A DNA stretch of 64,000 nt from an uncultured Clostridia bacterium (GTDB lineage Bacteria; Bacillota; Clostridia; TANB77; CAG-508), in contig CALXVT010000004.1 in assembly GCA_944392175.1 (NCBI GenBank), positions 10,016-74,015 on the forward strand. Reading direction: 5' to 3'. Positions 16,396-56,253 of this stretch are shown one piece after another. The first letter of the stretch is position 1. Each line of letters starts with the position of its first letter. The notes below the pieces were generated by a model that saw nothing but the letters and a program-made list of their open reading frames with translations, made no database searches and was not told where the DNA came from. The position numbers and the translations under genes were made by a program.

Positions 16396-16399
16396 TATT

Positions 16400-21691: not shown

Positions 21692-21701
21692 TAAAATTTA
21701 A

Positions 21702-21732: not shown

Positions 21733-21823
21733 AAAATATATTAGAAAGCTACAAACCTACGGAAAATCCGGCTTTTAGGATTAAAATTTTAAAATAATTT
21801 AATGCTAAAAAAATAAACAAAAA

Positions 21824-21865
21824 TGTAATAAAAAAATAATAAAAGCGCCAAAAATAACATCCGTA
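21824..21865 (+). promoter_or_regulatory. shared adhesin-locus motif
   Basis: TGTAATAAAA (21824) and TAAAAGCGCCAAAAATAACATCCGTA (21840-21865). Confidence 0.5.
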
Positions 21866-21961
21866 AAGACATAAAAAACATACCTAAATACAGCTATTTA
21901 CTAGACAAAAATAAATTTGTAAAATAATAAAAGGTAAAAATGGATATAAGGAGAGTAAAGC

Positions 21962-26914: not shown

Positions 26915-26917
26915 GAA

Positions 26918-29900
26918 ATGAGATTAATTAGAAGAATTTTGTTAATTTTTCTATTTTTATCAATAGGATATTTAATCTTTAACTGTAATAAGGTTAATGC
27001 AGCTTTAGCTCAAGTTCCAGGTCCTAAATATGATGGGGATGTTGCATATAGTACATCGCCACATTTAAGTCCAAACTCTACCGGAATAGATATAGATTTT
27101 ATGGATTTAGTAGAATATAATGATGGAAAAGGAACTCCTAAGCCATATGGTTGTATAGATAGAAAAGTGTTGGCACAATGTGGATATGCATCTCATTACT
27201 ATAGTGTAACAAGTGTTATCGGCATCGGAAGTGTAGAAATAACAGGAGAGGCACCATGGATAAATTCTGCAACAGGTACAGTTAAATGGTCAAAATATAG
27301 TGATACAGTTTATAAAGTTGGCCCATATAAAGTTAATTTCTCTGGAAGTATATCTAGTATAGTTATTGATACTGATGGAGAAGATGCAACATTAAGTAAT
27401 GGACAGAAGAATGGAAACTTAGGTGTTGATACAATTACAAGTGGTACTGATTTTTATATTTATATTAGAAAAGGAATAGGAATTAAAAAAGTAAATGGAG
27501 TAAAAGTAAGTGTTGAATCTAAAGTAACAAGCAAGCAATTAAAACAGTATATTTTAGAATGCTATGCTGTTTCTCCAGTAGGTTATGGTCATGATAACCG
27601 TGATTGTGCAAATGGACCAACACATGTGCAAAGAGTTGAACATTATCAATATGACTCATCTATAACAACTGCAAGCGATTCTGTAGATCTTCCAGGTGCA
27701 CTAGGTGTAATCCAATTACAAATTGTAAAACACGATAAATACAGACCAGATATATTAGTACAAGGAGCAAAGTACGAATTATGGAGTGGAGGAAAACTAC
27801 AATATTCTGGGACAACAGGTGCTAATGGTATTGCAAATATTGCAGATGTTTTAATTGGAGATTATACAATTAAAGAAGTAGCAGTTCCATATAATTATGA
27901 ATTAAAAGGTTATGCAACATGGAATGGTACAACATATAATGATGTAACAAATATGAATGGAAGTTTAGAAGATGATACTAGAATAGATGTGTATAATGAA
28001 AGTTATATGGATCTGGGAGGTAAGGTCTTTATAGATAAGCCTTCTAAAAAAGACAAAAAAGAAAACGGATATTATAATAGTGATGGAGATCCACCAGATT
28101 CACCTTTGGAAGGAATAACAGTAACATTATATAGTTCAGAGCCAAACTCACAGCCAGAAACAATGTTTACTGATAAAGATGGAAATTATAAATTTTTACA
28201 CAAGTCTAAAGCATATGAATATTATATTAAATTCACATATAATGGACAAATTTATGAGCCTACAACATATAATGTTGGACTAAATTCGGATAGTCCAGAT
28301 AGAAAACTAAGGTCATATGCAACAGAAACACCATCAGAAAGAGATAATTTTAATAATAAATTTGCACCTGTAGATAGTTCACACCAAGCACCTTTATGGA
28401 CAGACAAAACTAATAGTGAATTCTTAATAGATGCATATACAGGAGATAGTGGTTTAGACAATTTATTAAAATTTGATAAAGATAGTACATCAGATGAATT
28501 ATTAAATATTAACTTAGGTTTATTAGAAAGAGAAAAATTTGATTTAAACTTAAGAAAAGATTTAGTAAATGTAGAACTTAAAATAAATGGAAAAGAACAT
28601 ACATATGAATATCCAGGTGGAGAACTACCATTAGATGTAGAAATAAGAGGTACTGATGTTAAAAGATATGAAAGAGAAATAGCAAGATCTGATTTAGGAT
28701 ATTCAGGACATGACAAACTAGAAGTATATATAACATATGTAATACAAATTCAAAATGAATCACAAGGACAAATAACAGGATATGTTACAGATTTAAACGA
28801 TTATTATGATATGTCATATTTAAAAATAGAATCTTGGGATGAGAACAATCAAACAATTAATTGGACAACAGTTGGTACAGTTTCAGAAAATGGAAAAGAA
28901 TATAATAAAATGCACACAACTGATTTGGCAAATGTTGGTATAACTGATAAAAAATATATTTATATAAGGTATCAATTAGAAGATGAAACTATAAGAGAAT
29001 TGTTTGATTCAAATACAGAATCTACAGAAGAAAATCTTGCAGAGATTGCAGGATATAGAAATACTTATACAGTAGCAAAACAAGATTTAAATGGTAGAAC
29101 AATGACAAATGCTGGAGAAGTAGCAGGTTTAATAGATATTGATTCAACACCTGATAATTTAAATCCTGTAAGTTCAGAAGTTCAAGATTTTATAGAAAAA
29201 TCTAAAACAGATGAATATCAAAATTTAAGTTCAGAAGAAAAATCTAATCAAAGTAGAGAAATTTTTGAAGATGATGCAGATTATGCACCAGGTTTAAGAA
29301 TTATTCCTACAGGACCAAGAACAATTTCTGGAACAGTATTTGAGGATTCACCAATTGCAGATAAATTAGATGAAAATGAAAGAATTGGTGATGGAGAATT
29401 AACAGGAGATGATACTAGAAGAATAAATCAGGTACATGTAGAATTAATAGCTGTTAAAGAAAATACTGCTGGAGAATGGGAAGTAGACGAAGATGTAATG
29501 AATTATTACGAAAGTAGTGATGGAAACTTAGTTTCTGATGTTGATGTAAGAACAAATACAAATGGAGAATATATTGTTTCTGGATACATACCAGGAGATT
29601 ATATAATTAGATTTACATATGGAGATCAAGAATGTTTAATTAATCCACAAAATGATGACGAAATGTACACAGGGCAAGATTATAAATCTACTTTATGGTT
29701 TAGCGAAAATTATGAAGGAGAAAATAATGATTGGTATAAAGATGAAACACCAAGAACAAATGATGCAACAGACAATCAAGATAGAAGAGAAGATGTAAAT
29801 TCATATAGTAGAACATTACAATATAGTAATGCAATAATACTTGATTCAGATAAGGATTCATCAAATGTAGCAGAACTTGCAGATAAAACATATATGTATG

Positions 29901-31156
29901 CCGATACAGCCTTAATGTCTATGCAAATAGAATATTTAGGTGAAGAAGAAGAGGATTATGATGTAAATAATGTTGATTTTGGTATAATAGAAAGACCAAG
30001 AACAAAGATTACTTTGGTAAAAAATGTAGAACGTGTTAAATTAAGTGCAGTAGATGGAAGTACAATATTTGATGCAAATGATACAGCTCCAGGTTTAACA
30101 TGGCAGAAAAATAAATATAATACAAATTCTAGAGAATTAGAAGCAAAAGGATTTGTGCAAGGAACTGTTGATGAAAACTTACTATATGGTTCTACAGCTC
30201 AGGTTACATATACATTTACAATAATAAATGATAGTGAAATTGATTATAATGATTTAGGTTATTATGAAAGAGGCGAAAAGCCAGAAGATGAAAAATTAAA
30301 TAAAATAAATACAAATAAAATGATTGACTACATTCCAAATACTTTTAAATATATAAAAGAAACATCTGATGCTCAAGGAGAGATTATAATAAGTGAATAT
30401 TCTGAAATACCTGATAATGCAGTTGGAATAACAAAACCACAAGATGAAACTTTATGGCAGGTAAAAAAGAATATTGTAGAAGGAATAACTCTAGACGCAA
30501 ACGAATACAGAATTAGTGGAAATGAATTATTAAAACAAAAAGTATTTGAAGATGTAAATAATAATATAGATACAGTAATTCAATTCCCAGGAACGAGTAA
30601 TTATCCGTCAGAAATTACAAGTTTAATAAATTCTGATCCAACACAATCAAAAGGATTGATAGCTCCAAATGGAGAAATAAAACTTAAAAATGCATTAACA
30701 ATTACTAGAGTAATTTCAAAAGATGGAGATTTAGAGGTAAAAGAAGGAGAACCAGAACAAAATGTTGCAGAAATAATTCAATTTACAATAGATAATGGTA
30801 GAAGACCATATTACGAATCAGAAAAAGACATAGATGATATTACAGGAGATACAGAATCTGGTGGTGGAAGCGGAGATAGCGAAGATGAAGATGATCCAAC
30901 AAAATTTGATAGTGTACATACTGTTACTACAGAGACAGGAGAAATCATACCAGTAGTTACAGAAACACCAGGTAATGCAAATCCAATGGATCCAAAGACA
31001 TGGTTTGAAATAGATACAGCTATTTCTGAAGAGGTACAATTTATACCGCCATTTGGTAATAATAAAAAAGCTGAGTTAATAATTATAATAGTTATAGCAC
31101 TTGGTGTTTTGGGAATAGGTATATATATTATTAAGAAAAAAGTTTTATTAAAATAA
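26918..31156 (+). CDS. giant surface protein B' (paralogue of B, with a SpaA-like domain)
   Basis: C-terminal ~1000 aa colinear with B (FDLNLRKDL..VEL.INGK.HTY.YPGG.LPLDV, ETPGNANPMDP.TWFE.DTA.SEEV); N-terminus differs; IPPFG followed by TM and KKKVLLK. Confidence 0.85.
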   Translation: MRLIRRILLIFLFLSIGYLIFNCNKVNAALAQVPGPKYDGDVAYSTSPHLSPNSTGIDIDFMDLVEYNDGKGTPKPYGCIDRKVLAQCGYASHYYSVTSVIGIGSVEITGEAPWINSATGTVKWSKYSDTVYKVGPYKVNFSGSISSIVIDTDGEDATLSNGQKNGNLGVDTITSGTDFYIYIRKGIGIKKVNGVKVSVESKVTSKQLKQYILECYAVSPVGYGHDNRDCANGPTHVQRVEHYQYDSSITTASDSVDLPGALGVIQLQIVKHDKYRPDILVQGAKYELWSGGKLQYSGTTGANGIANIADVLIGDYTIKEVAVPYNYELKGYATWNGTTYNDVTNMNGSLEDDTRIDVYNESYMDLGGKVFIDKPSKKDKKENGYYNSDGDPPDSPLEGITVTLYSSEPNSQPETMFTDKDGNYKFLHKSKAYEYYIKFTYNGQIYEPTTYNVGLNSDSPDRKLRSYATETPSERDNFNNKFAPVDSSHQAPLWTDKTNSEFLIDAYTGDSGLDNLLKFDKDSTSDELLNINLGLLEREKFDLNLRKDLVNVELKINGKEHTYEYPGGELPLDVEIRGTDVKRYEREIARSDLGYSGHDKLEVYITYVIQIQNESQGQITGYVTDLNDYYDMSYLKIESWDENNQTINWTTVGTVSENGKEYNKMHTTDLANVGITDKKYIYIRYQLEDETIRELFDSNTESTEENLAEIAGYRNTYTVAKQDLNGRTMTNAGEVAGLIDIDSTPDNLNPVSSEVQDFIEKSKTDEYQNLSSEEKSNQSREIFEDDADYAPGLRIIPTGPRTISGTVFEDSPIADKLDENERIGDGELTGDDTRRINQVHVELIAVKENTAGEWEVDEDVMNYYESSDGNLVSDVDVRTNTNGEYIVSGYIPGDYIIRFTYGDQECLINPQNDDEMYTGQDYKSTLWFSENYEGENNDWYKDETPRTNDATDNQDRREDVNSYSRTLQYSNAIILDSDKDSSNVAELADKTYMYADTALMSMQIEYLGEEEEDYDVNNVDFGIIERPRTKITLVKNVERVKLSAVDGSTIFDANDTAPGLTWQKNKYNTNSRELEAKGFVQGTVDENLLYGSTAQVTYTFTIINDSEIDYNDLGYYERGEKPEDEKLNKINTNKMIDYIPNTFKYIKETSDAQGEIIISEYSEIPDNAVGITKPQDETLWQVKKNIVEGITLDANEYRISGNELLKQKVFEDVNNNIDTVIQFPGTSNYPSEITSLINSDPTQSKGLIAPNGEIKLKNALTITRVISKDGDLEVKEGEPEQNVAEIIQFTIDNGRRPYYESEKDIDDITGDTESGGGSGDSEDEDDPTKFDSVHTVTTETGEIIPVVTETPGNANPMDPKTWFEIDTAISEEVQFIPPFGNNKKAELIIIIVIALGVLGIGIYIIKKKVLLK

Positions 31157-36598: not shown

Positions 36599-37531
36599 TT
36601 AATTATTTTCATCATCTGGCTTTTTTTGTAATTCTGGTATATCTACTATTTCAGCTGTAACATCTTGAGAACCAGATTTTTCTTGAATTGTATTTCCTTT
36701 TGATGCTTCTGATGTTGATACATTTCCTTCAGTCTCTACTGTTTGTGAAGTAGAAACTCCAGCTACATGTTCATAGAATACAACAAGTGCTACATCAACA
36801 TATGGCAACAAGAAAATTTCTGCAACATAGATTGTAACAATATATAAGAAATCAATTCCTATACCTGCAAATATTGCTGGTAAGATTGAAGCTAATAATA
36901 CCCATCCGATAAAAGAAAGTCCTAAACAGAATAATTTACCAGAATTTCCATTCATAAGTTCGCCACTTTTGTTTACGCATTCAAGAGCAGGCATATTAGG
37001 ATTATCTACAGCAATATAAATTGATAATGCATATTTTAAACCTAATACAATAAAGAATCCTGCTGCAACAGCAACTAATATAATTGCTATAATTAAAAAG
37101 AATACTGATGCGCCTGTTACTGATGAACTTAATGAAACTAATCCAACTGCAGAAGTAAATACTGAAATTCCAATTACAATTAGTGCTACTATGTAAAGAA
37201 TTATTGGAACAATCATTTTAAGTAATAATCTTCCAGTAATGCACCAAGATCTACTGAAATTTTCAAAACCTTCTTTTAAGAAATCAACATATCCTACTTC
37301 TTGACCTCTTTTTATTTTCATAAATGTCATAGTAAGACCATATGTTATTGGTGGCATTATTACAAGTTCTCCTATAGATACTAATAAGCCTAATAAAGGT
37401 ATTGCAGTAAATATTCCTATTACAAAGATAATTGCTACATATATTAAAAGTATTAAAGCAGCTTTTCCCCAATTACCTTTTAATGCTTCACGAGCCTTTC
37501 TTCTGGCTTCTGATGCTGTTAAAGTAACCAT
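36599..37531 (-). CDS. DUF975-family membrane protein
   Basis: A..ALKG.WG, F..G...F...., S..LM.G...KLF.L.LSFIGW and PY......FY patterns. Confidence 0.88.
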   Translation of the reverse strand: MVTLTASEARRKAREALKGNWGKAALILLIYVAIIFVIGIFTAIPLLGLLVSIGELVIMPPITYGLTMTFMKIKRGQEVGYVDFLKEGFENFSRSWCITGRLLLKMIVPIILYIVALIVIGISVFTSAVGLVSLSSSVTGASVFFLIIAIILVAVAAGFFIVLGLKYALSIYIAVDNPNMPALECVNKSGELMNGNSGKLFCLGLSFIGWVLLASILPAIFAGIGIDFLYIVTIYVAEIFLLPYVDVALVVFYEHVAGVSTSQTVETEGNVSTSEASKGNTIQEKSGSQDVTAEIVDIPELQKKPDDENN

Positions 37532-37599: not shown

Positions 37600-38628
37600 T
37601 TAAAATTTTTTTTGAATTGCTTCTATAGATGAAAAATCTTTATCTATTATGTCTAAAAATGCAATTCCGATTTCTGGATCAAATTGAGATCCTAAATTTT
37701 TTAATAATTCATCTTTTACAATATTCATATCTAAAGAGTCTCTATAACTTCTTTTAGATGTCATTGCATCAAAGCTGTCACAAACTGCTACAATTCGTGC
37801 AAGATAAGGAATATTATTTCCTGACATTTTATCCGGATAACCATTTCCATCAAATCTTTCATGATGATGTTTTACTATATCTAAAATATTTTTAAACATT
37901 GAAGCATGCTCCAAAATATTATAACCGATTACCGGATGTTCTTTTATTTTATTATATTCTTCATCAGTTAGTTTACCTTCTTTTAAAAGTATACTATCAG
38001 GGATTCCTATTTTTCCAATATCGTGAAATAGTCCGCCAACTCGTAAAGTATCAATATCTTCGTCAGGTAAATTTAATTTTTTACCAAGTAAAACAGAATA
38101 TTCAGAAACTCTGTCAGAATGTCCTTTTGTATATGGATCTTTTGCTTCAACAGTATGACGTAAAATCTCTATACTTTCTAAATAAGCATTTTCTAGTTCA
38201 TGGTTTATATCATTTATTGTTTTCATTTGTTCAACTGATTTTAAACCAGATTCTATTAATAAAAGTAATTGGTCAAATTTATCGCTTTTTTCACAATATC
38301 CTTGAATATCTAGTTTATGAATTGTTTCTAATGGTGGAGCTAAATCTTTATGACCTGTAAGTAATAAAATATACAAATCTTTATTAAATTTACGAATTTC
38401 TTCTACTACTTTATCTCCATGAATAGGTTCCATTATAAAGTCTAATACCATTAAATCAAAATGTTCTTGCTTAACTCTTTCTATAGCTTCTAAAGGAGAA
38501 GTTATTCCAACAAAATCATAACCAGATCGTTTCATAAAAATAGATAAGGAATCTAGAATACCTTGTTCGTCATCTACGGCAATTACTTTAAAACCGGATT
38601 TTTGTGCAGAAACCATATTCTTTCTCAT
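37600..38628 (-). CDS. response regulator with HD-GYP (cyclic-dinucleotide phosphodiesterase) output domain
   Basis: REC domain (VDDE, LD, LTG, EK); HDIGKIG, HHER.DG.GYP and DSFDAMTS.R.YR. GAGG SD favours ATG 38628; the longer track ORF start is implausible. Confidence 0.92.
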   Translation of the reverse strand: MRKNMVSAQKSGFKVIAVDDEQGILDSLSIFMKRSGYDFVGITSPLEAIERVKQEHFDLMVLDFIMEPIHGDKVVEEIRKFNKDLYILLLTGHKDLAPPLETIHKLDIQGYCEKSDKFDQLLLLIESGLKSVEQMKTINDINHELENAYLESIEILRHTVEAKDPYTKGHSDRVSEYSVLLGKKLNLPDEDIDTLRVGGLFHDIGKIGIPDSILLKEGKLTDEEYNKIKEHPVIGYNILEHASMFKNILDIVKHHHERFDGNGYPDKMSGNNIPYLARIVAVCDSFDAMTSKRSYRDSLDMNIVKDELLKNLGSQFDPEIGIAFLDIIDKDFSSIEAIQKKF

Positions 38629-38652
38629 AATAGCGACCTCCTTAATATAAAA

Positions 38653-38681
38653 ATTATATAAATAAAAAAATATAAAAGCAA
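38653..38681 (-). promoter_or_regulatory. sigma-A promoter of the REC/HD-GYP gene
   Basis: TTGCTT-N17-TATAAT on the minus strand. Confidence 0.65.
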
Positions 38682-38721
38682 TAAAAATACTAAAAAAGTA
38701 ATAAAAATGTAAAATACAATT

Positions 38722-38750
38722 AAAAAATCGTAAAATCTGACGATTTTTCC
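38722..38750 (-). terminator. terminator-like hairpin after the histidine kinase, partly homologous to the dispersed repeat
   Basis: Minus strand AAAAATCGT-CAGATTTT-ACGATTTTTT; GGAAAAATCGTCAGATTTT matches 6177-6195 at 18/19. Confidence 0.55.
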
Positions 38751-38776
38751 ATATATAAAAAGAAAGCAGATAAGTT

Positions 38777-40789
38777 TTACTTATCTGTTTTAGGTAAATC
38801 TTTAGGTAATGGAATTGAAATTGTAAATGTAGTTCCATTATTATTAGATTCACATGTTATATTTCCATTAAAGTGAGCTTTTATTGTTGAGTATGATATA
38901 AATAGTCCAAGTCCTGTTCCGTTTTTTCCTTTTGTTGTAATCATTTCTTTAAATAGTTTATCCTGAACTTCTTTACTCATACCTGGTCCATAATCTTTAA
39001 TTTCTATTAGTACATTATTATCTTTAGTTTTTAATGTTAAATCAATTGCTTGATTAGGATTTCCTTCATATGCTTGAATTGAATTTGAAATCATGTTATT
39101 TACAACTTGTACTAAACTATTAACATCACCATTTAGATATACATTTGAAGGGACGTAATTATTAATATTAAGTGTTACTAATGCATTTTTTAATTCATGT
39201 TTCATTAATATATTAATACTTTTTAATAATTCATCCATATAAAAATGTATATTATTATTAGATGAAAAGTTTACAGCTTGTCCTTTAACTGCTGTTATAA
39301 CATCTGACATATATTCTGTATAATTTTTAATTTTTTCTATCCAATCTGTCATATCTTTTGCAATATCATGATGATCTTGTTCTGTTACATCTTTATCTCC
39401 AATAGATGTATCATATTCTTTAACTAGGTCTGATAATCCTTCTGCCGCACCAGAAATTGACATTATAGGTGTTTTTAAATTGTGTGCAATTCCTCCAATT
39501 AATTGACCAAGTGATGCTAAACGCTCTCTTTCCATTAATGTTTCTTGGTTAGATTTAATTGTTTGAATATATTCTTTTGTTTTATCTTGGACTTTATTAA
39601 AAGCAATTGTTAAATCACCAAATTCATCATTTGAGATAACAGGTAATTTTTCGATATATCCTAATTTTGAATTATTATAAATATAGTTTAAACCATTAGT
39701 AACTCTGTTAATATCTGTTGTAATAGAAGTTGAAAAATAATGTAATAATAATCCAACAATTACTAATAAAATACCACAGGTAATTCCTAAAAAGTATATA
39801 GTTTCTATAGAAGAAATGCTATATGAAATTCCAACATAGCAAATTCCTTCTGTAGAATTTAATTTTATAGTGGCACCTTGTGTATCTATTCCATAACTAT
39901 CATAAGTTCTGCCATTGTAATTAGAAGATAATTCTCTAGTATATGCTACTAAAAAATTACTTGGTGCATCACCAGAAACAGTTATAACTTTATCTTCAAA
40001 GATAATAAATCTGGAACTATCTGAACTATATAGTTCTATATTAGATAAAATATCTTTAATTTCATCAACTTCGTATGTTTCGTTAATATCAAAATTATTA
40101 TTTAAACTTGCATTATATAAAGTAAAGAATATATCTTCTTTTTCTTTTACACTTCTAGAATATCCCATAAAAGAAGTAAGAAGAAGGACACTTACAAATA
40201 AAGGCATTATTTGTAAAACTATTTTTTTTCTTAAATTTACACGTATTCCTAAATCAGAACCTTCTTTATATGTACTAGCAAGTATTTCAGCATATATATT
40301 TTTAGAAAATATATATGTGAATGTTGCAAGCAAAAATGCAAGTGAAAGTGTAAGTACAAATATTTTTAATACCATAATTCCATGATGACTACCAGTAAGG
40401 AGAACTACTCCAAGGATTCCTAATGTAGGAAGAAATAATTCGATTATATAAATGATATAAGGTATATTAAAACATTTTTTCCTTATCTTTTCTATAGTAT
40501 TTTTTTCTTTTCTTTTATCTTTATTAGTATACCAATTATCTACATCACGAAGACATAATTTAGTTGATATAAATATAATTAATAATATTACAAAACCAAT
40601 AATGGTTAACTGTTGTGCATAAGAGATATAAGACATTTTTATGTCAAATGGTGTATTAATTGAACCAGGTGCATAATTTAATAATGTTGGTATTAATACT
40701 GCACAAACAAGCAAAAATATAAATGCAATAAAACAATATCTTAATACTATTCTTGACGTAGGTTTTTTAAAAATAAATCTTTTTTTCAT
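38777..40789 (-). CDS. membrane sensor histidine kinase (about 6 TM, HAMP, HisKA, HATPase)
   Basis: Five N-terminal hydrophobic segments, a ~110-aa loop, a sixth TM, DEFGDL..AFN (HAMP), IAHNLKTP (H-box), N-box, D.GPG and GTGLGL. Confidence 0.92.
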   Translation of the reverse strand: MKKRFIFKKPTSRIVLRYCFIAFIFLLVCAVLIPTLLNYAPGSINTPFDIKMSYISYAQQLTIIGFVILLIIFISTKLCLRDVDNWYTNKDKRKEKNTIEKIRKKCFNIPYIIYIIELFLPTLGILGVVLLTGSHHGIMVLKIFVLTLSLAFLLATFTYIFSKNIYAEILASTYKEGSDLGIRVNLRKKIVLQIMPLFVSVLLLTSFMGYSRSVKEKEDIFFTLYNASLNNNFDINETYEVDEIKDILSNIELYSSDSSRFIIFEDKVITVSGDAPSNFLVAYTRELSSNYNGRTYDSYGIDTQGATIKLNSTEGICYVGISYSISSIETIYFLGITCGILLVIVGLLLHYFSTSITTDINRVTNGLNYIYNNSKLGYIEKLPVISNDEFGDLTIAFNKVQDKTKEYIQTIKSNQETLMERERLASLGQLIGGIAHNLKTPIMSISGAAEGLSDLVKEYDTSIGDKDVTEQDHHDIAKDMTDWIEKIKNYTEYMSDVITAVKGQAVNFSSNNNIHFYMDELLKSINILMKHELKNALVTLNINNYVPSNVYLNGDVNSLVQVVNNMISNSIQAYEGNPNQAIDLTLKTKDNNVLIEIKDYGPGMSKEVQDKLFKEMITTKGKNGTGLGLFISYSTIKAHFNGNITCESNNNGTTFTISIPLPKDLPKTDK

Positions 40790-40808
40790 ATAAATTACAT
40801 CCTTTGTA

Positions 40809-43800
40809 CTATATAAATTTTACTTTTTTCATATATTTAAATATTTTAGTTAAATAATCTTTATCTAATTCTGGCCATTTAAAATCTAAAAGATTTAAAT
40901 ATTTTTTTGTAAATTCTGAAGATATATCAACAGAGAAATTATAGTTTAATACTTCGTCAGAATTATCAAAAGATATATCATTAATTATTCCTTTTAATTG
41001 ATTAGAATTTTCACTGCTATTTGCTACTTTTAAAATGTATTCTTTAAAAGTTTCGTCATCCATAGGAGTTATATTATAATTAAAGTCTTTTAAAACATTT
41101 ATAATATCTTTTATATTCACTAAATTATCATTATACAAATGGAATACTTTATTTTCAGCAGTTTGAGTCTCTGCTAATAAAACAATTGCTTTAGCACATA
41201 AATCCACTGGTGTGAATTCTATATGCTGTTCTAAATTTGTATATGATAAATGTTTTAATTCTATTAAAGATTTAATTCTACTATAAAAAGCATTTGCTGT
41301 TATATTCTTTTGGAAAACTCCATCAGAATATCTTCCTGATAAAATTCCTATTCTTAAAACTTCTGCAGTTAAGCCTTTTTCCATAAAAGAGTAAACAACT
41401 TTTTCAGCATCAAATTTACTATTTACATAAACATTTTTTGTATAATGTTGACCAATATATAAATCATTTTCAGTAAATGCTACATTATGGTTATCTTGTT
41501 TTACAAGATAATTACCTGAAACACTGATAGAAGATATATGTATTAAGCGTTTTTTATTTGCATATGCAAAACTTGCGATTCTTCTTGTACCATCAATATT
41601 TGAGTCCTTAAATTGTTCAAAATCACCATAATGTTTAACAATTGCTGCTGTATGAATAATAGTTTTTGTATTAGAAGTTATCATGTCTAGATCTTCTTGT
41701 GACAAATTAAAATTATCATATATAATTTCTCCATTAAAAACATAAATTCTGTCATTAAAATATTCTGAAATATCCTTATTAAAGTAGAATTCGTAACTTT
41801 CTTTTAATCTAGAAAGTGCATGTACTTTACTTGTACCTCTTACAAAACAATAAATCTTTATATTAGTTGTTTCCAAAAGTTCATGTAAAACATGAACTCC
41901 AATAAATCCATTAGCTCCTGTAAGTAAAACATTACCCAAAGTTTTTTGATCTGTACATACTTTAATATTATCTATTTCAGTTTCTGTATGTTTAAATGAT
42001 TCTGGAATTTGGAAATTCATCTCTGTATAATATTCTTCGTGAGTATCGATTCTTTTAGCAAGTCTTTTTATTGTAGGATATCTATAAAAAGTTTGAGTAG
42101 TTAAATTTAAGTTATAGTGCAATAAAGATGTTTGAAGTTCTATTATTCCAAGAGAATCAATTCCCAAAGATAAAAACGGAGTATTAATGTCCAAATTATC
42201 TGTTTTTAAGATTTTTTCTAGTATAGAAGAAATCAATTTTTCAGTATTAGTTTGTGCAAGTTCTATATTAGTATTTGTATTTTCGTCTATTGGAGGTAAT
42301 GCTTTTCTGTTAATTTTTCCATTAGGAGTTAATGGAATTTTATCAATCCTTTTAAAATAAGCAGGAATCATATAATTAGGTAAATATTTAAGTAAAAAAG
42401 ATATTAATTTTGAAGGATTAATTTGTTCATCTGCAACATAATAGCAATATAAATATTTATTGTTTTTATTTGGAATAACGACAGTATGTTTTATTCCTGG
42501 AAAACGAATAATTTTATTTTCTATTTCTTCAACTTCAATTCTATAACCACGGATTTTTACTTGAAAATCTGTTCTTCCTAAATGCACAATATCTCCATCA
42601 GGAGTATAATATGCTAAATCATTTGTATTATATATTTTTTCATTTCCTTTAAATGGTGAAGGAATAAACTTTTCTTCAGTTAAATCCTCTCTTCCTAAAT
42701 AACCATTTGTAACTCCATCTCCACCTATATATAGTTCTCCAGGACAGTAATATGGTAATGGTTTTAAATTTTTATCTAAAATATAACACTGTGTATTTGC
42801 AATAGGTTTACCAACAGAAATAAGATTAGTATTTGTTAAATCTTTTAAAGTTGACCATATTGTAGTTTCTGTTGGCCCATATACATTTATAATGGTAGCA
42901 TTTGAAAGTTCTTTGAATTTTGCAAGTAAGTTTTTAGGTAAAGATTCACCACCAACCAAGATATCTGTTATATTATTTAAAAATTCTAAATTAGTTTCTT
43001 TGCTAAGTAATGCAGAATAACGAGAAGGTGTAGTTTGAATAATATTAACATTATTTTCTAAACAAAGTTTATTTAAAGAAACTACATCATTTTGTTCTTC
43101 TTCATCTGCTAAAACTAGAGTTAATCCATAACATAAAGAACACCATAATTCTAATCCAAAAATATCAAAACAAATAGTTGTTAGAGATACACATACTTTA
43201 TTTGGATTAAAATCAATTGCTTGCTTCATACCTAAAATAAAATTGTGTAAGTTTCTATGTGTAATCATTACACCTTTAGGATTACCAGTAGAACCTGATG
43301 TATAAATAAGATATACTAAAGACTTTGGAGAAATATTCACATTTAAATTTTCTGTATCTCTTATATCTAATTTATAAGTACTATTAAATAAATCTATATT
43401 TATATGGTCATGTTTTACAGGAATATATTCTTCTGTAAGATTATTGGTAACTACTACTTTAGTTTTACTATTTTCTAACATGTAAGTAATTCGTTCTTGT
43501 GGATATTCTGGATCAATAGGCATATAGTTTGCACCACACTTTAGTATAGCAAGTATTGCAATAATTAAATTTGAAGAACGATTTAATATAATTCCAATAG
43601 TATCATTAGGTTTTACATTATGCTTATTCTTTAAGAAATTGGCAAAAATATTTGCAGAACTATTTAATTCTTTATATGTTAAAGATTTCCCATTACTAAC
43701 TAAAGCAATTTTATCAGGTGTATTTTTTACTTGTTTTTCAAATAGACTTATTACATTTGAATTTATGTCATATTCTAAATCAGTTTTATTAAAATCTATT

Positions 43801-45125
43801 AATATTTTTTCTTTTTCTTCAGGTGTAAGAATTTCTATATCTTTTAATAATAAAGCAGAATTATTTAATACTTGATTTATTATATAAATAATTCTATTAT
43901 GCATAAAATTAATATCAGATGATTGATACATATCTGTTTGATAATCATATGCAATATTTAGATTTCCAGTATCATTTAAATCAAATAATTGAATATTCAA
44001 AGGATCTGAACAATTTCCATTAAAAGACCATGTTGTATTATAATTAATGCCTTCTTCATTAGATTGAGTGTTAGTTATTTGATAAGAAATTAGTACATTA
44101 TATAAATTTGGGATTTCTGTATCATTTTCCCTTAAATAATCCAATATTTTAGAATAAGGATATTGCTGATGTCTAAGCATTGATAAAGAATTTTTTCCAA
44201 TTATGCTACAAAATTCAGCAAAAGAAATATTATTATTAATTTCAAATCTAAATGGAGCAGTACTTATGAACATACCACAAGTACGTTTTGCATTAAAATT
44301 ATTTCTATTTAAAATAGGTGTACCAACTACAAAATCTTCAGTTTTACATACTCTACTTAAATAAAGACCAAAGACTGCCATAAAGAAATTAAATTCTGAA
44401 ACTTTGTTATTCTTACAAAAATTACGAATATCATTTATTAATGATTTATCTACAGTAAAAACTATTCTATTAGCTTTGCTAGAGTTTGTTATATTTGTAT
44501 TATTAATTGATTTAGGAATAGTTATAGGTTCTGGTAAAGTCTTAAATAAATTTTCCCAATATTCTTTATCTTTAGTAAATCTATTACTTTCCATATAAGA
44601 TTGTTCAGAATTAATATAATCTAAATAAGTATTCTCATAAGATAATAATGGTAAATTTCTTTTTAGATTAGAATAATTCTTGATTATTTCATTGCAAACA
44701 AGACCCAATGTCCAAGAATCAGAAATTAAGTGATGTATAATTAAAGTAAAAGCTGAAAAACCATTAGGAAACCTAAAAATATAGAAATTAAATAAATTTT
44801 TGTTATAAATATCAAAAGGGATACTAATTTTGTTATTTATATATTCGGAATATTCTTCCTTAGAATTAACATCAACTATAGGTACATCATACTCCATTAC
44901 TTTATAATATTGTTTTGGTTCGTTTTTTTCTAAAGTGATTTTTAAATGAAAACTATAATTATTATTTACTATGTGACAGATAGACTCTTTTAGTAAAGAA
45001 AAATCTGTAACTTCATTTACAAAAGCTGTGCCACAAATAGTATTTAAAGAAGAGTTGTTATAAAACTTTTCCAAATACCAAATATTTTTTTGTGGGTTTG
45101 TCAAATTTAGTAATTTTTCTTCCAT
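40809..45125 (-). CDS. single-module NRPS: condensation - adenylation (Gly code) - PCP - terminal reductase
   Basis: HHLISD (C domain); YTSGSTGNPKG, YGPTE, TGD-like TND, NGK (A domain); GIDSL (PCP serine); TGANGFIG and Y..SK (SDR-type reductase). Confidence 0.92.
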   Translation of the reverse strand: MEEKLLNLTNPQKNIWYLEKFYNNSSLNTICGTAFVNEVTDFSLLKESICHIVNNNYSFHLKITLEKNEPKQYYKVMEYDVPIVDVNSKEEYSEYINNKISIPFDIYNKNLFNFYIFRFPNGFSAFTLIIHHLISDSWTLGLVCNEIIKNYSNLKRNLPLLSYENTYLDYINSEQSYMESNRFTKDKEYWENLFKTLPEPITIPKSINNTNITNSSKANRIVFTVDKSLINDIRNFCKNNKVSEFNFFMAVFGLYLSRVCKTEDFVVGTPILNRNNFNAKRTCGMFISTAPFRFEINNNISFAEFCSIIGKNSLSMLRHQQYPYSKILDYLRENDTEIPNLYNVLISYQITNTQSNEEGINYNTTWSFNGNCSDPLNIQLFDLNDTGNLNIAYDYQTDMYQSSDINFMHNRIIYIINQVLNNSALLLKDIEILTPEEKEKILIDFNKTDLEYDINSNVISLFEKQVKNTPDKIALVSNGKSLTYKELNSSANIFANFLKNKHNVKPNDTIGIILNRSSNLIIAILAILKCGANYMPIDPEYPQERITYMLENSKTKVVVTNNLTEEYIPVKHDHINIDLFNSTYKLDIRDTENLNVNISPKSLVYLIYTSGSTGNPKGVMITHRNLHNFILGMKQAIDFNPNKVCVSLTTICFDIFGLELWCSLCYGLTLVLADEEEQNDVVSLNKLCLENNVNIIQTTPSRYSALLSKETNLEFLNNITDILVGGESLPKNLLAKFKELSNATIINVYGPTETTIWSTLKDLTNTNLISVGKPIANTQCYILDKNLKPLPYYCPGELYIGGDGVTNGYLGREDLTEEKFIPSPFKGNEKIYNTNDLAYYTPDGDIVHLGRTDFQVKIRGYRIEVEEIENKIIRFPGIKHTVVIPNKNNKYLYCYYVADEQINPSKLISFLLKYLPNYMIPAYFKRIDKIPLTPNGKINRKALPPIDENTNTNIELAQTNTEKLISSILEKILKTDNLDINTPFLSLGIDSLGIIELQTSLLHYNLNLTTQTFYRYPTIKRLAKRIDTHEEYYTEMNFQIPESFKHTETEIDNIKVCTDQKTLGNVLLTGANGFIGVHVLHELLETTNIKIYCFVRGTSKVHALSRLKESYEFYFNKDISEYFNDRIYVFNGEIIYDNFNLSQEDLDMITSNTKTIIHTAAIVKHYGDFEQFKDSNIDGTRRIASFAYANKKRLIHISSISVSGNYLVKQDNHNVAFTENDLYIGQHYTKNVYVNSKFDAEKVVYSFMEKGLTAEVLRIGILSGRYSDGVFQKNITANAFYSRIKSLIELKHLSYTNLEQHIEFTPVDLCAKAIVLLAETQTAENKVFHLYNDNLVNIKDIINVLKDFNYNITPMDDETFKEYILKVANSSENSNQLKGIINDISFDNSDEVLNYNFSVDISSEFTKKYLNLLDFKWPELDKDYLTKIFKYMKKVKFI

Positions 45126-45311
45126 GACTGTAATCTCCTTTTATTTTAAAACTATAGTTATTTTTACCTATCTAATTTAGCCTAATTATATATATAAAAT
45201 ATTAAAAATTTCAATAGAAATAAAAAAATAGTTAAGGATAATATGAATAAATGATTAAAAAATCCTCTTTTGGAAAATATAAGAATATAGAGTTTCCAAA
45301 GGAGGTTTTTT

Positions 45312-46439
45312 ATGCATCATTATCACAAAATTAAAGAGAAACATACAAAAAGAAATTTGTTTATTGCATTTTTAATTATCATAACAATAATATTGGTAGC
45401 ATCACTTATAAGATTGTATAATAGAATAGATATTTCAAAAACTAATGAAGAAGTAAAAGTAGAAAGAACTGGAACAAGTGTAACTAGTGTAGAAGAAAAG
45501 GACGAAACCATAGAGAAAATTATAGAAGAAACAAATCATTGTGTAGTAGGAATTTCTAAAATAGAAGAGGTTGGAGATTCAATTTTTTCTGAAGATGCAA
45601 TAGAAAAATTAGGACTTGGAACAGGAATTATAGTCTCAAGTAAAGGATATATAGCAACAAATATGCATGTATCTGGTGATAAATATAGTAATTGCTATGT
45701 AACATTGGAAAATGGAAATACTTATAAAGCAGATGTAGTATGGGCAAATAATACATTAGATTTAAGTATTATCAAAATTAATTTGGAAGGATTAAATTAT
45801 ATTAAATTAGGAGATTCAAGTAACGTTAAAACCGGTCAAACAGTTTATGCAATAGGAAATCCAATAGGATATGAATTTCAAAGAACTGTAACTTCTGGAA
45901 TTATAAGTGCAGAAAGTAGAACATTAAAATTTAAAGAAAATAATAAAGAAGTCTTAATGACAGATTTAATTCAAACAGATGCCACTATAAATCCAGGAAA
46001 TAGTGGAGGACCACTAATAAATACAGATGGAGAAGTAATTGGAATAAATTCTTTAAAGATAGATTCAGCAGAAGGAATTGGATTTGCTGTTCCTATAAAT
46101 ATTATTAAACCAATTATAGAAAAATTTGATAAAACGGGAAAATTTGAAGAACCAACAATTGGAGTTTCTGGGTATGATAAAAATGTTATTCCATATATAG
46201 ATAAAGAGATATCTATAAATAGTGGAGTATATGTAGAAAACATAACCAAAGGTAGTCCGGCAGAACAAAATGGAATAATAAAAGGTGATATAATAATGAA
46301 AATGGATGAAAAAGAAATTAATACAATGAATGAATTAATAGAAAATGTATATTCAAAGAATCCAGATGATGAAATAAGTTTAACAATTAATAGAAGTGGT
46401 TTAACAAAAGTTATAAAATTGAAATTGGGAAGGAAATGA
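45312..46439 (+). CDS. htrA: HtrA/DegP-family serine protease with PDZ domain
   Basis: N-terminal TM, TNMHV, DLSIIK, QTDATINPGNSGGPL, C-terminal PDZ. Confidence 0.92.
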   Translation: MHHYHKIKEKHTKRNLFIAFLIIITIILVASLIRLYNRIDISKTNEEVKVERTGTSVTSVEEKDETIEKIIEETNHCVVGISKIEEVGDSIFSEDAIEKLGLGTGIIVSSKGYIATNMHVSGDKYSNCYVTLENGNTYKADVVWANNTLDLSIIKINLEGLNYIKLGDSSNVKTGQTVYAIGNPIGYEFQRTVTSGIISAESRTLKFKENNKEVLMTDLIQTDATINPGNSGGPLINTDGEVIGINSLKIDSAEGIGFAVPINIIKPIIEKFDKTGKFEEPTIGVSGYDKNVIPYIDKEISINSGVYVENITKGSPAEQNGIIKGDIIMKMDEKEINTMNELIENVYSKNPDDEISLTINRSGLTKVIKLKLGRK

Positions 46440-52434: not shown

Positions 52435-55400
52435 TTGTTAAAAGAAATTAAGCATGAGAAAAGCTCAAGAAAAGACTTTGCAAAAGTTGGCGATTACATC
52501 GATATGCCTAATTTAATCAAAGTGCAAAGAGATTCTTATGAGTGGTTTGTCGAAGAAGGATTGGGAGAAGTTTTAAGAGATATTTCACCAATCATTGACT
52601 ATTCAGGAAATTTAGTTCTAGAATTTTTCGATTATTACATGGAAGACAAAACAAAATATTCTTTAGAAGAAGCTAAAGAAAGAGATGCAACTTATTCTAC
52701 ACGTTTACACGTAAAAGTAAGATTAATAAATCGTGAAACAGGAGAAATAAAAGAGCAAGAAATTTATTTAGGTGATTTCCCATTAATGACAGATAGTGGA
52801 ACATTTATAATAAATGGTGCAGAAAGAGTTGTAGTTAGCCAATTAGTACGTTCACCAGGATGTTACTATGAATTTTCATATGATAAAACAGGTAAAAGAC
52901 TATATACATCAACAGTAATGCCAATTAGAGGTGCTTGGATTGAATATGAAACAGATAGTAATGATGTATTTTATGCACGTGTAGATAGAACTAGAAAAAT
53001 TCCTGTAACAACACTATTAAGAGCTTTAGGTCTTGCAACAGATGACCAAATACTTGACTTCTTTGGAAATGAAGAAAAATTAAAAGTAACATTAGAAAAA
53101 GATCCAATAAAAACACAAGATGAAGCATTAATAGAAATATATAAGAAATTAAGACCAGGAGAACTTCCAACAGTAGATGCAGCAAGAAATCTATTTAACG
53201 GATTATTCTTTGATGCAAGAAGATATGATTTAGCAAAAGTAGGAAGATATAAATATAATAAAAAACTAAGTTTAGCTACAAGAATTGCTGGAAAGATAGC
53301 AGCAACAGACATTGTAAATCCAGAAACTGGAGAAGTATTTGTAGAAAAAGATGAAGTTATTTCAAAAGAAGTAGCAGAAGATATTCAAAATTCTGGAATA
53401 AATGTAGTAGAAGTAAAAGTAGATGATAAACCAGTAAAAGTAATAGGTAATGGAACAGTAAATATTCATAACTTTGTTACTAATGTAGATATTTCAGATT
53501 TACATTTTAAAGAAATGGTTAATTATGAAGTATTAAAAAATATATTAGATAATACAGAGGAAAAAGATTTACATGATGCAATTAAAGCAAGATATGATGA
53601 ATTAGTTCCAAAACATGTTACAACAGAAGATATTTTAGCATCAGTTAACTATTTATTAAACTTAGACCATAAATTAGGAGAAATTGATGATATTGATCAT
53701 TTAGGAAACAGACGTATTCGTTGTGTTGGTGAATTATTACAAAACCAATTTAGAATTGGTTTAACAAGACTTGAAAGAGTTGTTCGTGAAAGAATGACAA
53801 TTCAAGACTTAGATGTTGTAACACCACAAACATTAATTAATACAAAACCAATAACATCAGCAATAAGAGAATTCTTCGGTAGTTCACAATTATCACAATT
53901 CATGGATCAAACAAATCCATTATCAGAACTTACACATAAAAGAAGAATTTCTGCATTAGGACCAGGAGGACTTTCTAGAGAAAGAGCAGGTTTCGAAGTT
54001 CGTGATATTCACTATACACATTATGGAAGACTATGCCCAATAGAATCTCCAGAAGGACCAAACATAGGATTAATTTCAGCACTTTCTTCATTTGCTCAAA
54101 TTAATGAATATGGATTTATCGAAACACCATATAGATTAGTAGATCCAGAAACTCATAGAGTTACAGATAAAGTAGAATATATGAGTGCAGATGTAGAAGA
54201 TGGAAACTATATAGCAGAAGCAGAAGAACCATTAAACGAAGATGGATCATTTGTAAATAAACGTGTAAAAGTTAGATATAGAAACGATATTATAGAAGTA
54301 GACAATACAATGGTAACAGGAATGGATGTATCACCTAAACAATTAGTTTCAATTGGTGCAGCCATGATACCATTCTTAGAGCATGATGATGCAAAACGTG
54401 CTTTAATGGGTGCAAACATGCAACGTCAAGCAGTTCCATTAATAATGCCAGAAGCTCCAATAGTAGGAACAGGTATGGAATATAGAGCAGCAAAAGATTC
54501 AGGAATACTTATTTTGGCAGAAGACGATGGTGTTATAGAAAAAGTTACAGGAGACGCAATCACTGTTAAATATAATAATGGAACAACTAAAACACATAAA
54601 TTAAACAAATTTAAAAGAACAAATGGTGGAACTTGTATTAACCAAAGACCTATTGTTGTAAAAGGTGAAAAGGTTAAGAAAGGTGATGCAATAGCAGATG
54701 GACCAGCAACTAAAAATGGAGAAATGTCACTTGGTAGAAATGTATTAGTAGCATTCTCTACATGGGAAGGATACAACTATGAAGATGCTATTCTTTTAAA
54801 TGAAAGATTAGTAAAAGAAGATGTATTTACTTCAATTCATATAGAAGAATATGACTGCGAATGTCGTGATACAAAATTAGGACCAGAAGAAATTACAAGA
54901 GACATTCCAAATGTTGGTGAAGACAGCTTAAAAGACTTAGACGAAAATGGTATTATAAGAATTGGTGCAGAAGTAAGACCAGGAGATATATTAGTTGGAA
55001 AAGTTACACCAAAAGGTGAAACAGAACTAACAGCAGAAGAAAGATTACTTCGTGCAATCTTTGGAGAAAAAGCTCGTGAAGTAAGAGATACATCTCTTAA
55101 AGTACCACATGGAGAAGCTGGAACAATAGTAGATGTAAAAATATTTACAAGGGATAATTCAGATGAATTAGGACCTGGTGTAAATCAAATTATAAGATGT
55201 TATATAGCAACAAAAAGAAAAATATCAGTTGGAGATAAAATGGCTGGACGTCATGGTAATAAAGGTACAATTTCTAGAATATTACCAGAAGAAGATATGC
55301 CATTTATGCCAGATGGTACACCAGTAGATATTTTACTTAATCCATTAGGTGTTCCTTCTCGTATGAACTTAGGTCAAGTTTTAGAAGTACATTTAGGTTT

Positions 55401-56166
55401 AGCTGCAAAAGAATTAGGATGGAATGTTGCAACACCAGTTTTTGATGGTGCAACATCAGAAGAAATAGAAGAATTATTAATTAAATCTGGAAATACTCCA
55501 GATGGAAAAACAATTCTTTATGATGGAAGAACAGGAGATCCATTTGCAGAACCAATTACAGTAGGAGTTATGTATATGCTTAAATTACACCACTTAGTAG
55601 ATGACAAAATACATGCTCGTTCAACTGGACCATACTCATTAGTTACACAACAACCACTTGGAGGTAAAGCTCAATTTGGTGGACAACGTTTTGGAGAAAT
55701 GGAAGTTTGGGCACTAGAGGCATATGGTGCAGCTCATACGCTACAAGAAATGTTAACAGTTAAATCAGACGATGTTGTAGGAAGAGTTAAAACATATGAA
55801 GCAATAGTTAAAGGAGAAAATATTCCTGAACCAGGTGTTCCAGAAACATTTAAGGTATTAATAAAAGAACTTCAATCACTAGGATTAGATATGAGGTTAT
55901 ATACTAAAGACAATAAAGAAGTAGAACTTAAAGAAGATATAGATGACGGTATAGACTATAACGAAGCAAAACAAAAAGAAGAACAAGTATTAAATGAAAA
56001 TGAATTAGAAAATTCTTATATAGAAGCAGAAGAAGATAATGATGAAAATCCTGTAGAATTAAATGAAGATAATGACAGTATTTTCGAAGAAGATGGAATT
56101 CTAGATGATGAAGACATATATGGAAATGACTTATCAGAAGACAATCTTGATGAAGATAAGAATTAG
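52435..56166 (+). CDS. rpoB: RNA polymerase beta subunit
   Basis: [48 protein letters not shown]; TTG start with GAGGTG SD. Confidence 0.99.
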
Positions 56167-56253
56167 ACATAAATTATTGCAGAAAAACTTATACTTAAGG
56201 TGTTTTGCACTTTAAGTATAAGTACCTAAAAAAATAAATCAAGGGGGCAAAAT

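Follow-up and report, generated by a model that had tools for sequence, protein, structure and literature searches.

In CqsA/CqsS of Vibrio and LqsA/LqsS of Legionella, the signal synthase adjoins a kinase with about six transmembrane (TM) helices, and the alpha-hydroxyketone signal, which joins an amino acid-derived unit to a fatty acyl group, is membrane-permeant. The Rpf system of Xanthomonas combines a lipid-type signal synthase and a multi-TM sensor kinase with a REC/HD-GYP output. In agr, the signal and sensor vary and the output is conserved, which is the pattern of a pherotype system. The same pattern is found in ComQXPA, where ComQ, ComX and the N-terminus of ComP are variable, the cytoplasmic domain of ComP and ComA are conserved, and pherotypes are defined in this way (PMC4008528, PMC4408185). 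Here we describe three adjacent genes, encoding a non-ribosomal peptide synthetase (NRPS), a sensor histidine kinase and a REC/HD-GYP response regulator, in a 64,000-nucleotide (nt) stretch of contig CALXVT010000004.1 (assembly GCA_944392175.1, positions 10,016 to 74,015, forward strand) from an uncultured Clostridia bacterium. The whole of this stretch is referred to as the window. The locus is probably a polymorphic, quorum-sensing-like signal/receptor cassette set into a conserved two-component output.

The formal analogy is closest with the ComQXPA/agr pherotype systems, and not with Rpf. In both cases a multi-TM sensor kinase is encoded beside the enzyme that makes, or here is presumed to make, the signal, and the likeness extends to a breakpoint within the kinase gene, to several cassette types among loci with near-identical neighboring genes and to transfer of the cassette. 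The signals differ: those of ComQXPA and agr are ribosomal peptides (isoprenylated ComX and a thiolactone autoinducing peptide), whereas an NRPS product is predicted here and no precursor-peptide or processing gene is present in the cassette. The outputs differ as well, being a DNA-binding regulator (ComA, AgrA) in those systems and an HD-GYP protein in this one. No sequence homology was detected between the sensor and the ComQXPA/agr kinases. On this comparison the locus is an analogue of ComQXPA and agr in logic and not a member of either.

A preliminary description of this DNA had likened the three genes to Rpf. The regulator has the REC + HD-GYP architecture of RpfG (Response_reg + HD_5), with motifs that align to PmGH (4mcw). 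However, RpfF is a crotonase-family enzyme and not an NRPS, and RpfC is a hybrid kinase (HisKA-HATPase-REC-HPt), whereas the kinase here has HisKA and HATPase_c only. We know of no cassette polymorphism in Rpf. CqsA is likewise a different enzyme, a pyridoxal phosphate-dependent acyl-CoA transferase, and CqsS differs from the kinase described here in having no extracytoplasmic domain and in being a hybrid kinase with a phosphorelay to LuxO. Because the synthase is an NRPS, the kinase is non-hybrid, the sensor has its own fold and a precursor peptide is absent, the locus belongs to none of these systems. What we rate as new is the presumed class of signal and family of receptor, within the known framework of polymorphic two-component quorum sensing. 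No description of NRPS-kinase-HD-GYP cassettes or of non-ribosomal pherotypes in Clostridia was found in full-text literature, which did not include Guo et al. 2017; this agrees with the earlier statement that an NRPS-reductase version of such a circuit had not been described in Clostridia.

Exchange of the NRPS and kinase sensor half

A regulator-centered metagenome scan returned 80 loci (66-84% regulator identity), many of them from human gut. All 80 share one slot, with the order HtrA / NRPS-kinase-regulator / (DUF975) Tex ABC-F. Loci are designated by L numbers where they must be told apart. Compared to locus L012, a tract of the window that covers the NRPS and the sensor half of the kinase (Table 1) has 9 mismatches (99.8% identity), while its flanks are 75-92% identical. 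A second case of transfer was observed between L022 and L052, which are 95% identical in the NRPS, 87% in the sensor and 79% in both the transmitter and Tex. Relatedness of the flanks does not predict relatedness of the cassette. L013 and the group L069-L079 are equally related to the window in Tex (89-90%), ABC-F (91%), regulator (82-83%) and transmitter (76-78%), but identity to the window in NRPS and sensor is 83% and 72% for L013 as compared to 34% and 26-30% for the L069 group.

The edge of the exchanged DNA falls repeatedly within the kinase gene. Identity along the kinase rises from about 25-35% to 70-100% at amino acids (aa) 376-421, the junction of HAMP and the dimerization and histidine phosphotransfer (DHp) domain. 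In L072 and L075, flanks of 96-97% identity enclose 5.5 kb of NRPS and sensor that cannot be aligned, with the right breakpoint at kinase aa ~389. Cassettes are also unalignable between L096 and L100, which are 97.4% identical from kinase aa ~408 on, and between L087 and L104, whose flanks are 94.7% identical. Groups of loci with at least 96% identical Tex contain two to three cassette types each.

The type of NRPS is matched to the type of sensor. Every one-module NRPS (1416-1449 aa) precedes a kinase of the 6-TM type, and two-module NRPSs (2451-2518 aa), with the domain order condensation (C), adenylation (A), carrier (T), C, A, T and terminal reductase (R), are always followed by a HisKA_7TM + PAS kinase; none of 41 complete loci was discordant. 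The two-module loci (L066, L067 and many of L084-L147) are common in human gut metagenomes, have the same REC/HD-GYP regulator and occupy the same chromosomal slot. The transmitter of their kinases is 58-71% identical to that of the window, and across both architectures transmitter (58-78%) and regulator (63-84%) are orthologous throughout. In L096 and L100 the two architectures are allelic in one background. Specificity codes of the A domains differ widely by cassette type, including Gly, Asn-like DLTKIGEVGK, Thr DFWNIGMVHK, DSELTAEVCK, DVAYLGGICK, DIFQMAGIFK and many two-module combinations. These comparisons demonstrate, at the level of sequence, that the NRPS and the sensor half of the kinase (aa 1-~395) have been inherited, diversified and horizontally exchanged together, and that the transmitter half and the regulator follow the host background.

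Several individual loci are of note. The code DSELTAEVCK is present in 15 NRPSs (e.g., L041-L044, L046, L050, L053-L056, L059, L060, L063 and L064). Two of its pocket residues are acidic and it ends in VCK, like Lys codes, but it was matched to no known specificity. A Bacillota metagenome-assembled genome (MAG) carries a double system (L051, positions 657-20526), with a 3089-aa NRPS (Gly and Thr codes), a first kinase and a 502-aa regulator, and then a second kinase and a one-module NRPS with the code DSELTAEVCK. It is the sole case of a larger NRPS adjoining a 6-TM-type kinase. In L110 (3602-14608), the NRPS, kinase, Tex and ABC-F genes are all split into many short open reading frames (ORFs), which looks like a frameshift-rich assembly rather than real pseudogenes.

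Synteny and co-phylogeny of the NRPS and sensor

One genome per species was scanned with the sensor alignment, yielding 54 loci, nearly all from MAGs of uncultured Clostridia or Bacillota from human, rumen, rabbit and mouse guts. In each of the 37 loci with sufficient flanking sequence on both sides, the kinase has a full-length C-A-T-R homologue (34-100% identity) as its neighbor, and an NRPS adjoins it in 49 of 53 loci overall. The usual order is NRPS then kinase, with a gap of 4-70 bp and flanking genes that vary by lineage. In a deep Bacillota group, designated 'OH_', the order is reversed. The pairing persists down to 34% NRPS and ~21-26% sensor identity. The neighborhood search that the preliminary description had proposed thus finds the two genes syntenic at every evaluable locus, in two gene orders and several chromosomal contexts. 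An automatic count placed the regulator beside the pair in 31 of 49 evaluable loci, to which L051 and L054 are to be added. Two apparent exceptions to NRPS-kinase adjacency (L025 and L047) are on contigs that are too short.

Co-phylogeny was assessed by correlating pairwise distances over 53 non-redundant loci, and over the 21 of these in which the neighboring housekeeping gene Tex was also present. NRPS and sensor distances are strongly correlated (r = 0.91, n = 53; r = 0.95, n = 21), and the partial correlation given Tex is 0.95 (p = 5e-4). Correlation with Tex is 0.15 for both NRPS and sensor and is not significant, as compared to 0.79 for the transmitter and 0.72 for the regulator. Transmitter and regulator correlate at 0.49 given Tex, as expected of cognate phosphotransfer partners, and sensor and regulator at -0.02. 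The co-phylogeny that had been suggested as a check is therefore present and independent of host background. In addition, sensor clades agree with A-domain code classes, and in L051, which has two NRPS-kinase pairs, each kinase groups with the code class of its own NRPS.

Departures from the usual arrangement were observed in single loci. In L091 (53-7830), a mobile element with a MobA/VirD2-type relaxase and two serine recombinases is inserted exactly at the upstream end of the kinase gene; the element either parts the NRPS from the kinase or has taken its place, and homology to L087 begins at the kinase start codon. In L045 (114-6189), a 574-aa protein without a Pfam match and a ThiF-family enzyme, and not an NRPS, precede the kinase, and a 500-aa REC/HD-GYP protein comes after it. 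The 574-aa protein and ThiF-family enzyme may represent another kind of signal synthase. In four loci of the 'OH_' group (L042, L044, L050 and L056), the place of the 342-aa regulator is taken by larger proteins of 481-614 aa, which contain an HD-GYP-like region and are encoded about 3 kb downstream of the NRPS. A 3.6-kb contig (L020, CAZHBQ010000130.1) holding the NRPS end, kinase and regulator was binned in a Methanobacteriaceae archaeon MAG, most likely a binning error. In L011, L023, L029 and L033 the NRPS-kinase pair is directly beside rpoB.

The NRPS and its predicted product

Conservation of the NRPS motifs was judged in a set of 64 single-module orthologues. In the HHLISD motif of the C domain, the second His and the Asp are invariant among aligned residues, the few exceptions being gaps. 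The P-loop TSGSTGxPKG and the A10 Lys (K937) of the A domain are conserved. Invariant residues include the D990-S991 pair of the carrier domain and G1070, G1073, G1076, Y1233 and K1237 of the reductase. The A domain scores 399 bits against TIGR01733 (cut-off 317 bits), and the reductase scores 144 bits against NAD_binding_4 and 199 bits against TIGR01746, slightly below the cut-off of 213 bits. By its sequence the enzyme is an intact C-A-T-R module in which all catalytic motifs are present. The exact NRPS of the window was found on 13 metagenome contigs, including one from MAG GCA_949288815.1.

The A-domain code DILQLGVIWK was read by motif anchoring to what we take to be the GrsA residue numbering, and is of the glycine type. 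The near-identical code DILQLGMIWK has been reported for Gly-activating domains (PMC12283262), and glycine is the predicted substrate. Because the C domain is N-terminal and has no upstream carrier protein, it is presumed to act as an N-acylating starter, and the most economical product would be an N-acyl-glycinal, or an N-acyl-ethanolamine if the aldehyde is reduced a second time. An acyl starter finds support in two observations. A FadD-like acyl-CoA ligase (~567 aa) is present in either orientation between HtrA and the NRPS in 13 related loci (L014, L019, L022, L052, L054, L071, L075, L078, L088, L096, L099, L106 and L126), and the C-A-T region of the window NRPS shares 43-52% identity with module 1 of its C-A-T-C-A-T-R relatives. 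The ligase belongs to the flank and not to the cassette, since it is 96% identical in L022 and L096 despite their different cassettes; none is present in the entire window.

Short NRPSs ending in a thioester reductase are known from gut Clostridia, where they yield peptide aldehydes and pyrazinones, and from Staphylococcus aureus (AusA). AusA is the best NCBIfam match of the window enzyme, over the A-T-R part. The dipeptide-aldehyde NRPSs of gut Clostridia have two modules, an architecture matched by L066, L067, L084 and other two-module relatives, whereas the enzyme described here is single-module, with a glycine code. N-acyl tails have been reported in the gut-Clostridia peptide-aldehyde family and can stabilize the aldehyde (PMC8210680, summarizing Guo et al. 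2017). No literature report was found of a dedicated kinase/HD-GYP partner or of allelic cassettes for peptide-aldehyde NRPSs. The myxochelin synthetase MxcG has the same C-A-T-R order, and its NCBIfam model aligns to aa 5-1378 with 514 bits, far under the 2300 bits set as the cut-off for that family. Lysine is the amino acid activated by MxcG, to which partner carrier proteins of a siderophore cluster deliver aryl donors; no such partners are present here.

The sensor kinase and the regulator

Six hydrophobic segments are apparent in the hydropathy profile of the kinase. The AlphaFold model likewise has six TM helices, and an alpha/beta domain of ~115 aa between TM5 and TM6 is modeled with a predicted local distance difference test (pLDDT) score of about 90. 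The positively charged N-terminus of the kinase would lie inside, and this domain is therefore probably extracytoplasmic. The earlier expectation of a multi-TM kinase that senses through its TM bundle was thus correct as to the six helices, but the sensor is not a bare bundle. A sensor-only AlphaFold model (pLDDT 86.7, predicted template modeling score 0.80) had as its best Foldseek matches the periplasmic PAS-like sensor domains of CpxA and CzcS, which are non-significant; transmitter matches dominate a search with the full kinase model. The kinase retains His436 and the N, G1 and G2 boxes. It ends 8 aa past the catalytic domain, and HisKA and HATPase_c are the only domains found. Kinases of ~665 aa that share its sensor region (aa 1-420) constitute a family, which in a set of 1.84 billion representative proteins falls into about 220 clusters at 50% identity.

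Translation of the regulator is assigned to the ATG at 38628 and not to the GTG at 38853, in agreement with gene calls on identical metagenome contigs. In 20 regulator orthologues, D19, D20, D63, T91 and K114 are invariant, as are H202-D203 and H255-H256-E257...G263-Y264-P265 (HHExxDGxGYP). The nearest solved relatives are the cyclic di-GMP (c-di-GMP) phosphodiesterase PmGH (4mcw, 2.6e-39) and V-cGAP3 (5z7c, 7.4e-39), which is specific for 3'3'-cyclic GMP-AMP (3'3'-cGAMP). Because these two differ in substrate, the regulator could act on 3'3'-cGAMP as well as on c-di-GMP. An output by c-di-GMP hydrolysis rather than DNA binding had been proposed; the HD-GYP domain and the lack of a DNA-binding domain agree with this, while 3'3'-cGAMP may also be a substrate.

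Locus layout and transcription signals

The features of the locus are listed in Table 1. As had been described, the three genes are neighbors in the same direction, and the NRPS and kinase are separated by exactly 19 nt. This spacer has a ribosome-binding site and no terminator, and the two genes are probably co-transcribed. The kinase-regulator spacer is 148 nt long and contains two terminator-like hairpins 3' of the kinase (fold z = -2.85). In each relative's spacer a hairpin and T-run are kept after the kinase with differing sequences, and the L012 hairpin has a compensatory CAG/CTG to CGG/CCG change.

Table 1. Positions of the genes, domains and putative transcription signals of the locus in the window
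Feature	Position	Strand	Remarks
NRPS, kinase and REC/HD-GYP regulator	37600-45125	-	all co-oriented on the minus strand of the window
Single-module NRPS, C-A-T-R, 1438 aa	40809..45125	-	Pfam, NCBIfam
Condensation domain, aa 5-442	43800..45113	-	Pfam; HHLISD at aa 131-136
Adenylation domain, aa 462-943	42297..43742	-	AMP-binding 462-810 + AMP-binding_C (Pfam); code DILQLGVIWK
Carrier (T/PCP; PP-binding) domain, aa 965-1026	42048..42233	-	Pfam; Ser991
Terminal thioester reductase (NAD_binding_4), aa 1065-1438	40812..41933	-	TGANGFIG, Y1233xxxK1237
NRPS-kinase spacer, 19 nt	40790..40808	-	AAGGATG ribosome-binding site; no terminator
Sensor histidine kinase, 670 aa	38777..40789	-	HisKA + HATPase_c (Pfam)
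Variable sensor half, aa 1-380	39650..40789	-	5 TM helices, extracytoplasmic domain, TM6, HAMP-like linker
Putative extracytoplasmic alpha/beta (PAS/PDC-like) domain, aa 211-329	39803..40159	-	conserved YNGRTYDSYGxDTQG motif
Conserved transmitter half, aa ~405-670	38780..39577	-	DHp with His436 + catalytic ATP-binding domain
Terminator-like hairpin 1	38767..38787	-	overlaps kinase stop codon; T-rich tail after
Terminator-like hairpin 2	38722..38749	-	10-bp stem, T-run after
Promoter-like element TTGCTT-17-TATAAT	38653..38681	-	ahead of regulator gene
Response regulator, 342 aa	37600..38628	-	REC 38257-38586; HD-GYP (HD_5) 37669-38163
Exchanged cassette, 5,661 bp	39603..45263	.	NRPS promoter region, NRPS, kinase codons 1-~395
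Best promoter-like site 5' of NRPS, TTGAAA-18-TATAAT	45185..45214	-	11/12 matches; putative function
HtrA-like serine protease (Trypsin_2 + PDZ)	45312..46439	+	divergent from NRPS; left border of variable slot
DUF975 membrane protein	36599..37531	-	3' of regulator; context, inconsistent neighbor

The preliminary description had also pointed to a hairpin and a TTGCTT-17-TATAAT promoter before the regulator gene. Both are present, and the promoter-like block is kept in seven of nine aligned spacers of relatives within otherwise variable sequence; it is weak by consensus, however, with 3 of 6 matches in the -35 element. A consensus promoter scan of the region, which is 26% G+C, found 79 promoter-like sites vs 74.8 in shuffled sequences. 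This is important to note because sites at chance level prove nothing by themselves, and conservation in relatives was used instead. Given the terminator-like hairpins and the conserved promoter-like block in the spacer, the likely transcription units are NRPS-kinase and, separately, the regulator. The best promoter-like site 5' of the NRPS falls within the 99.8%-identical exchanged tract.

Genes for an exporter, a tailoring enzyme, resistance or a phosphopantetheinyl transferase (PPTase) are absent over 10 kb on either side of the locus, so the reported lack of the first three holds over this distance. HtrA is next to the locus in 20 of the 53 genome-survey loci, Tex in 15 and DUF975 in 5, in lineage-specific fashion, and DUF975 also follows the regulator in several metagenome loci. 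HtrA and DUF975 were considered as core parts and rejected, as both are outside the exchanged tract and are inconsistent neighbors.

Proposed circuit and alternative explanations

In the proposed circuit, the C domain would take a fatty or short acyl group from acyl-CoA or an acyl carrier protein and join it to the amino group of glycine held on the carrier domain, and the R domain would release N-acyl-glycinal, or N-acyl-ethanolamine upon a second reduction. The product would exit the cell without a dedicated exporter and be recognized by the matching sensor, made up of a 5-TM bundle and the extracytoplasmic PAS-like domain. Recognition would alter autophosphorylation of His436 and phosphotransfer to Asp63 of the regulator, whose HD-GYP domain would then alter hydrolysis of c-di-GMP or 3'3'-cGAMP. 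Cassettes with other amino acids, or with two modules and a 7TM-PAS sensor, would represent other 'pherotypes' of one circuit. We give about an even chance to the broader reading that abundant, uncultured gut Clostridia of humans and animals use short reductase-terminated NRPSs as autoinducer synthases with type-matched sensors and a cyclic-dinucleotide output, one-module enzymes making N-acyl amino aldehydes or alcohols and two-module enzymes making N-acyl dipeptide aldehydes.

Several points weigh against a signal/receptor cassette. Joint transfer is partly expected from linkage, as the NRPS and sensor are contiguous DNA; the cassette argument therefore stands on the recurrent breakpoint inside the kinase gene and on the exclusive type pairing, because linkage explains neither. 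The comparative data are MAGs and metagenome contigs throughout. The cassette patterns recur across many independent samples, and assembly chimerism behind the mosaics is unlikely because the same cassette/flank combinations are seen in many samples (L069, L070, L072, L074, L076 and L079 vs L071, L075 and L078) and a second transfer case exists; a small chance of chimerism is left for the lone window/L012 pair. In about one third of the species-level loci the pair has no adjacent regulator, and two loci (L036 and L045) are genuine kinase loci without an NRPS. No autoinduction loop is visible, since the regulator lacks a DNA-binding domain. Among the annotated ORFs of the window there is none for a PPTase, an exporter or a FadD-like ligase. 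A PDB sequence search with the C domain returned ordinary elongation domains (5u89, 2jgp) as the best matches, with the starter domain 4jn3 lower, which does not favor a starter role and is not decisive. Foldseek against the PDB with the sensor-only model gave no significant fold match (best E = 0.12). Finally, the structure of the product, its release and binding by the sensor, the direction of its effect on the kinase, phosphotransfer, phosphodiesterase activity and the substrate hydrolyzed are all inferred.

The same arrangement could serve antagonism or kin discrimination. The product, a reactive N-acyl amino aldehyde, would inhibit proteases or be harmful to competitors or host enzymes, and a matched sensor would detect the cell's own or a rival's compound and trigger a protective c-di-GMP response, the pair being polymorphic like toxin and immunity. 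Terminal R domains do release aldehydes, the NRPS peptide aldehydes of gut Clostridia have been described as protease inhibitors (PMC8210680, summarizing Guo et al. 2017), and the two-module relatives have that C-A-T-C-A-T-R architecture. An HtrA serine protease gene borders the slot in many loci, and within-species allelic cassettes are also typical of polymorphic toxin loci. A sensor kinase is not an immunity protein, however, and there is no resistance or export gene; HtrA is outside the exchanged tract and absent from many loci. We regard antagonism as unlikely, and it overlaps with signaling in that the kinase would still need to sense the NRPS product.

That need disappears if the kinase senses a host, dietary or envelope signal unrelated to the NRPS product, and the genes are linked only through control of the timing or use of the metabolite by the two-component system. 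Two-component systems are common beside biosynthetic genes, an extracytoplasmic PAS-like domain is typical of sensors for outside small molecules, and the regulator appears to be read from a conserved promoter of its own, downstream of a terminator. An external cue leaves unexplained why the sensor changes in step with module number and amino-acid specificity while the transmitter, regulator and flanks stay constant, and why the NRPS and sensor half are transferred as one tract; the regulator, moreover, has no DNA-binding output. This explanation seems to us quite unlikely. The same variation speaks against a role in envelope homeostasis, in which the product would be a membrane-resident N-acyl amino alcohol or aldehyde lipid and the kinase would monitor membrane composition in a feedback loop together with HtrA and DUF975, as structural lipids are not expected to differ between strains of a single species in head-group amino acid and module number. 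The predicted product would be lipid-like if its acyl chain is long, FadD-like ligases adjoin in 13 relatives, HtrA and DUF975 are envelope proteins and an exporter is absent. These two neighbors are inconsistent, and we consider a homeostatic role very unlikely.

If the signal/receptor explanation is true in its broader reading, the locus would be the first non-ribosomal 'pherotype' system. N-acyl amino aldehydes or alcohols made by an NRPS would be a new chemical class of autoinducer, and the 5TM + PAS-like + TM kinases a new family of receptors. Strain-specific 'dialects', so far known for ribosomal peptide pheromones, would evolve for non-ribosomal molecules too. The native role of at least part of the gut peptide-aldehyde NRPSs would be cell-cell signaling, rather than or besides inhibition of host proteases. 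This would offer a testable native function for short reductase-terminated NRPSs, which are common in gut metagenomes, and would link them to cyclic-dinucleotide control of lifestyle in never-cultured organisms. Matched synthase and sensor alleles occur naturally in near-identical backgrounds and could be used in specificity experiments and as orthogonal synthetic signaling channels. Among the products predicted for glycine-type cassettes are N-acyl-ethanolamines, lipids that are active on the host.

Other features of the window

Four consecutive giant ORFs of 1649, 1763, 1650 and 1412 aa occupy positions 11446-31156 (+). The fourth has SpaA / SdrD_B / CarboxypepD_reg-type fold matches, suggesting a battery of surface adhesin-like proteins. 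These could be c-di-GMP-controlled targets, with no riboswitch of any kind, c-di-GMP riboswitches included, found by Rfam in the whole window. Rfam reported only four tRNA genes, at 1427-1701 and 6054-6126 (+), and a 31-nt IRE_II match at 60858-60888 (E = 0.026) that is almost certainly due to chance. A DHH/DHHA1-family protein of 490 aa is encoded at 7461-8933 (-); this family includes nanoRNases and phosphodiesterases of pGpG or cyclic dinucleotides. A repressor with a LexA-like helix-turn-helix and Peptidase_S24 is encoded at 3423-3998 (-), and a HicB-like antitoxin at 6489-6881 (-). At 52435-59787 (+), 7 kb from the locus, are rpoB, identified by Pfam on an identical contig, and rpoC, assigned by position and size.

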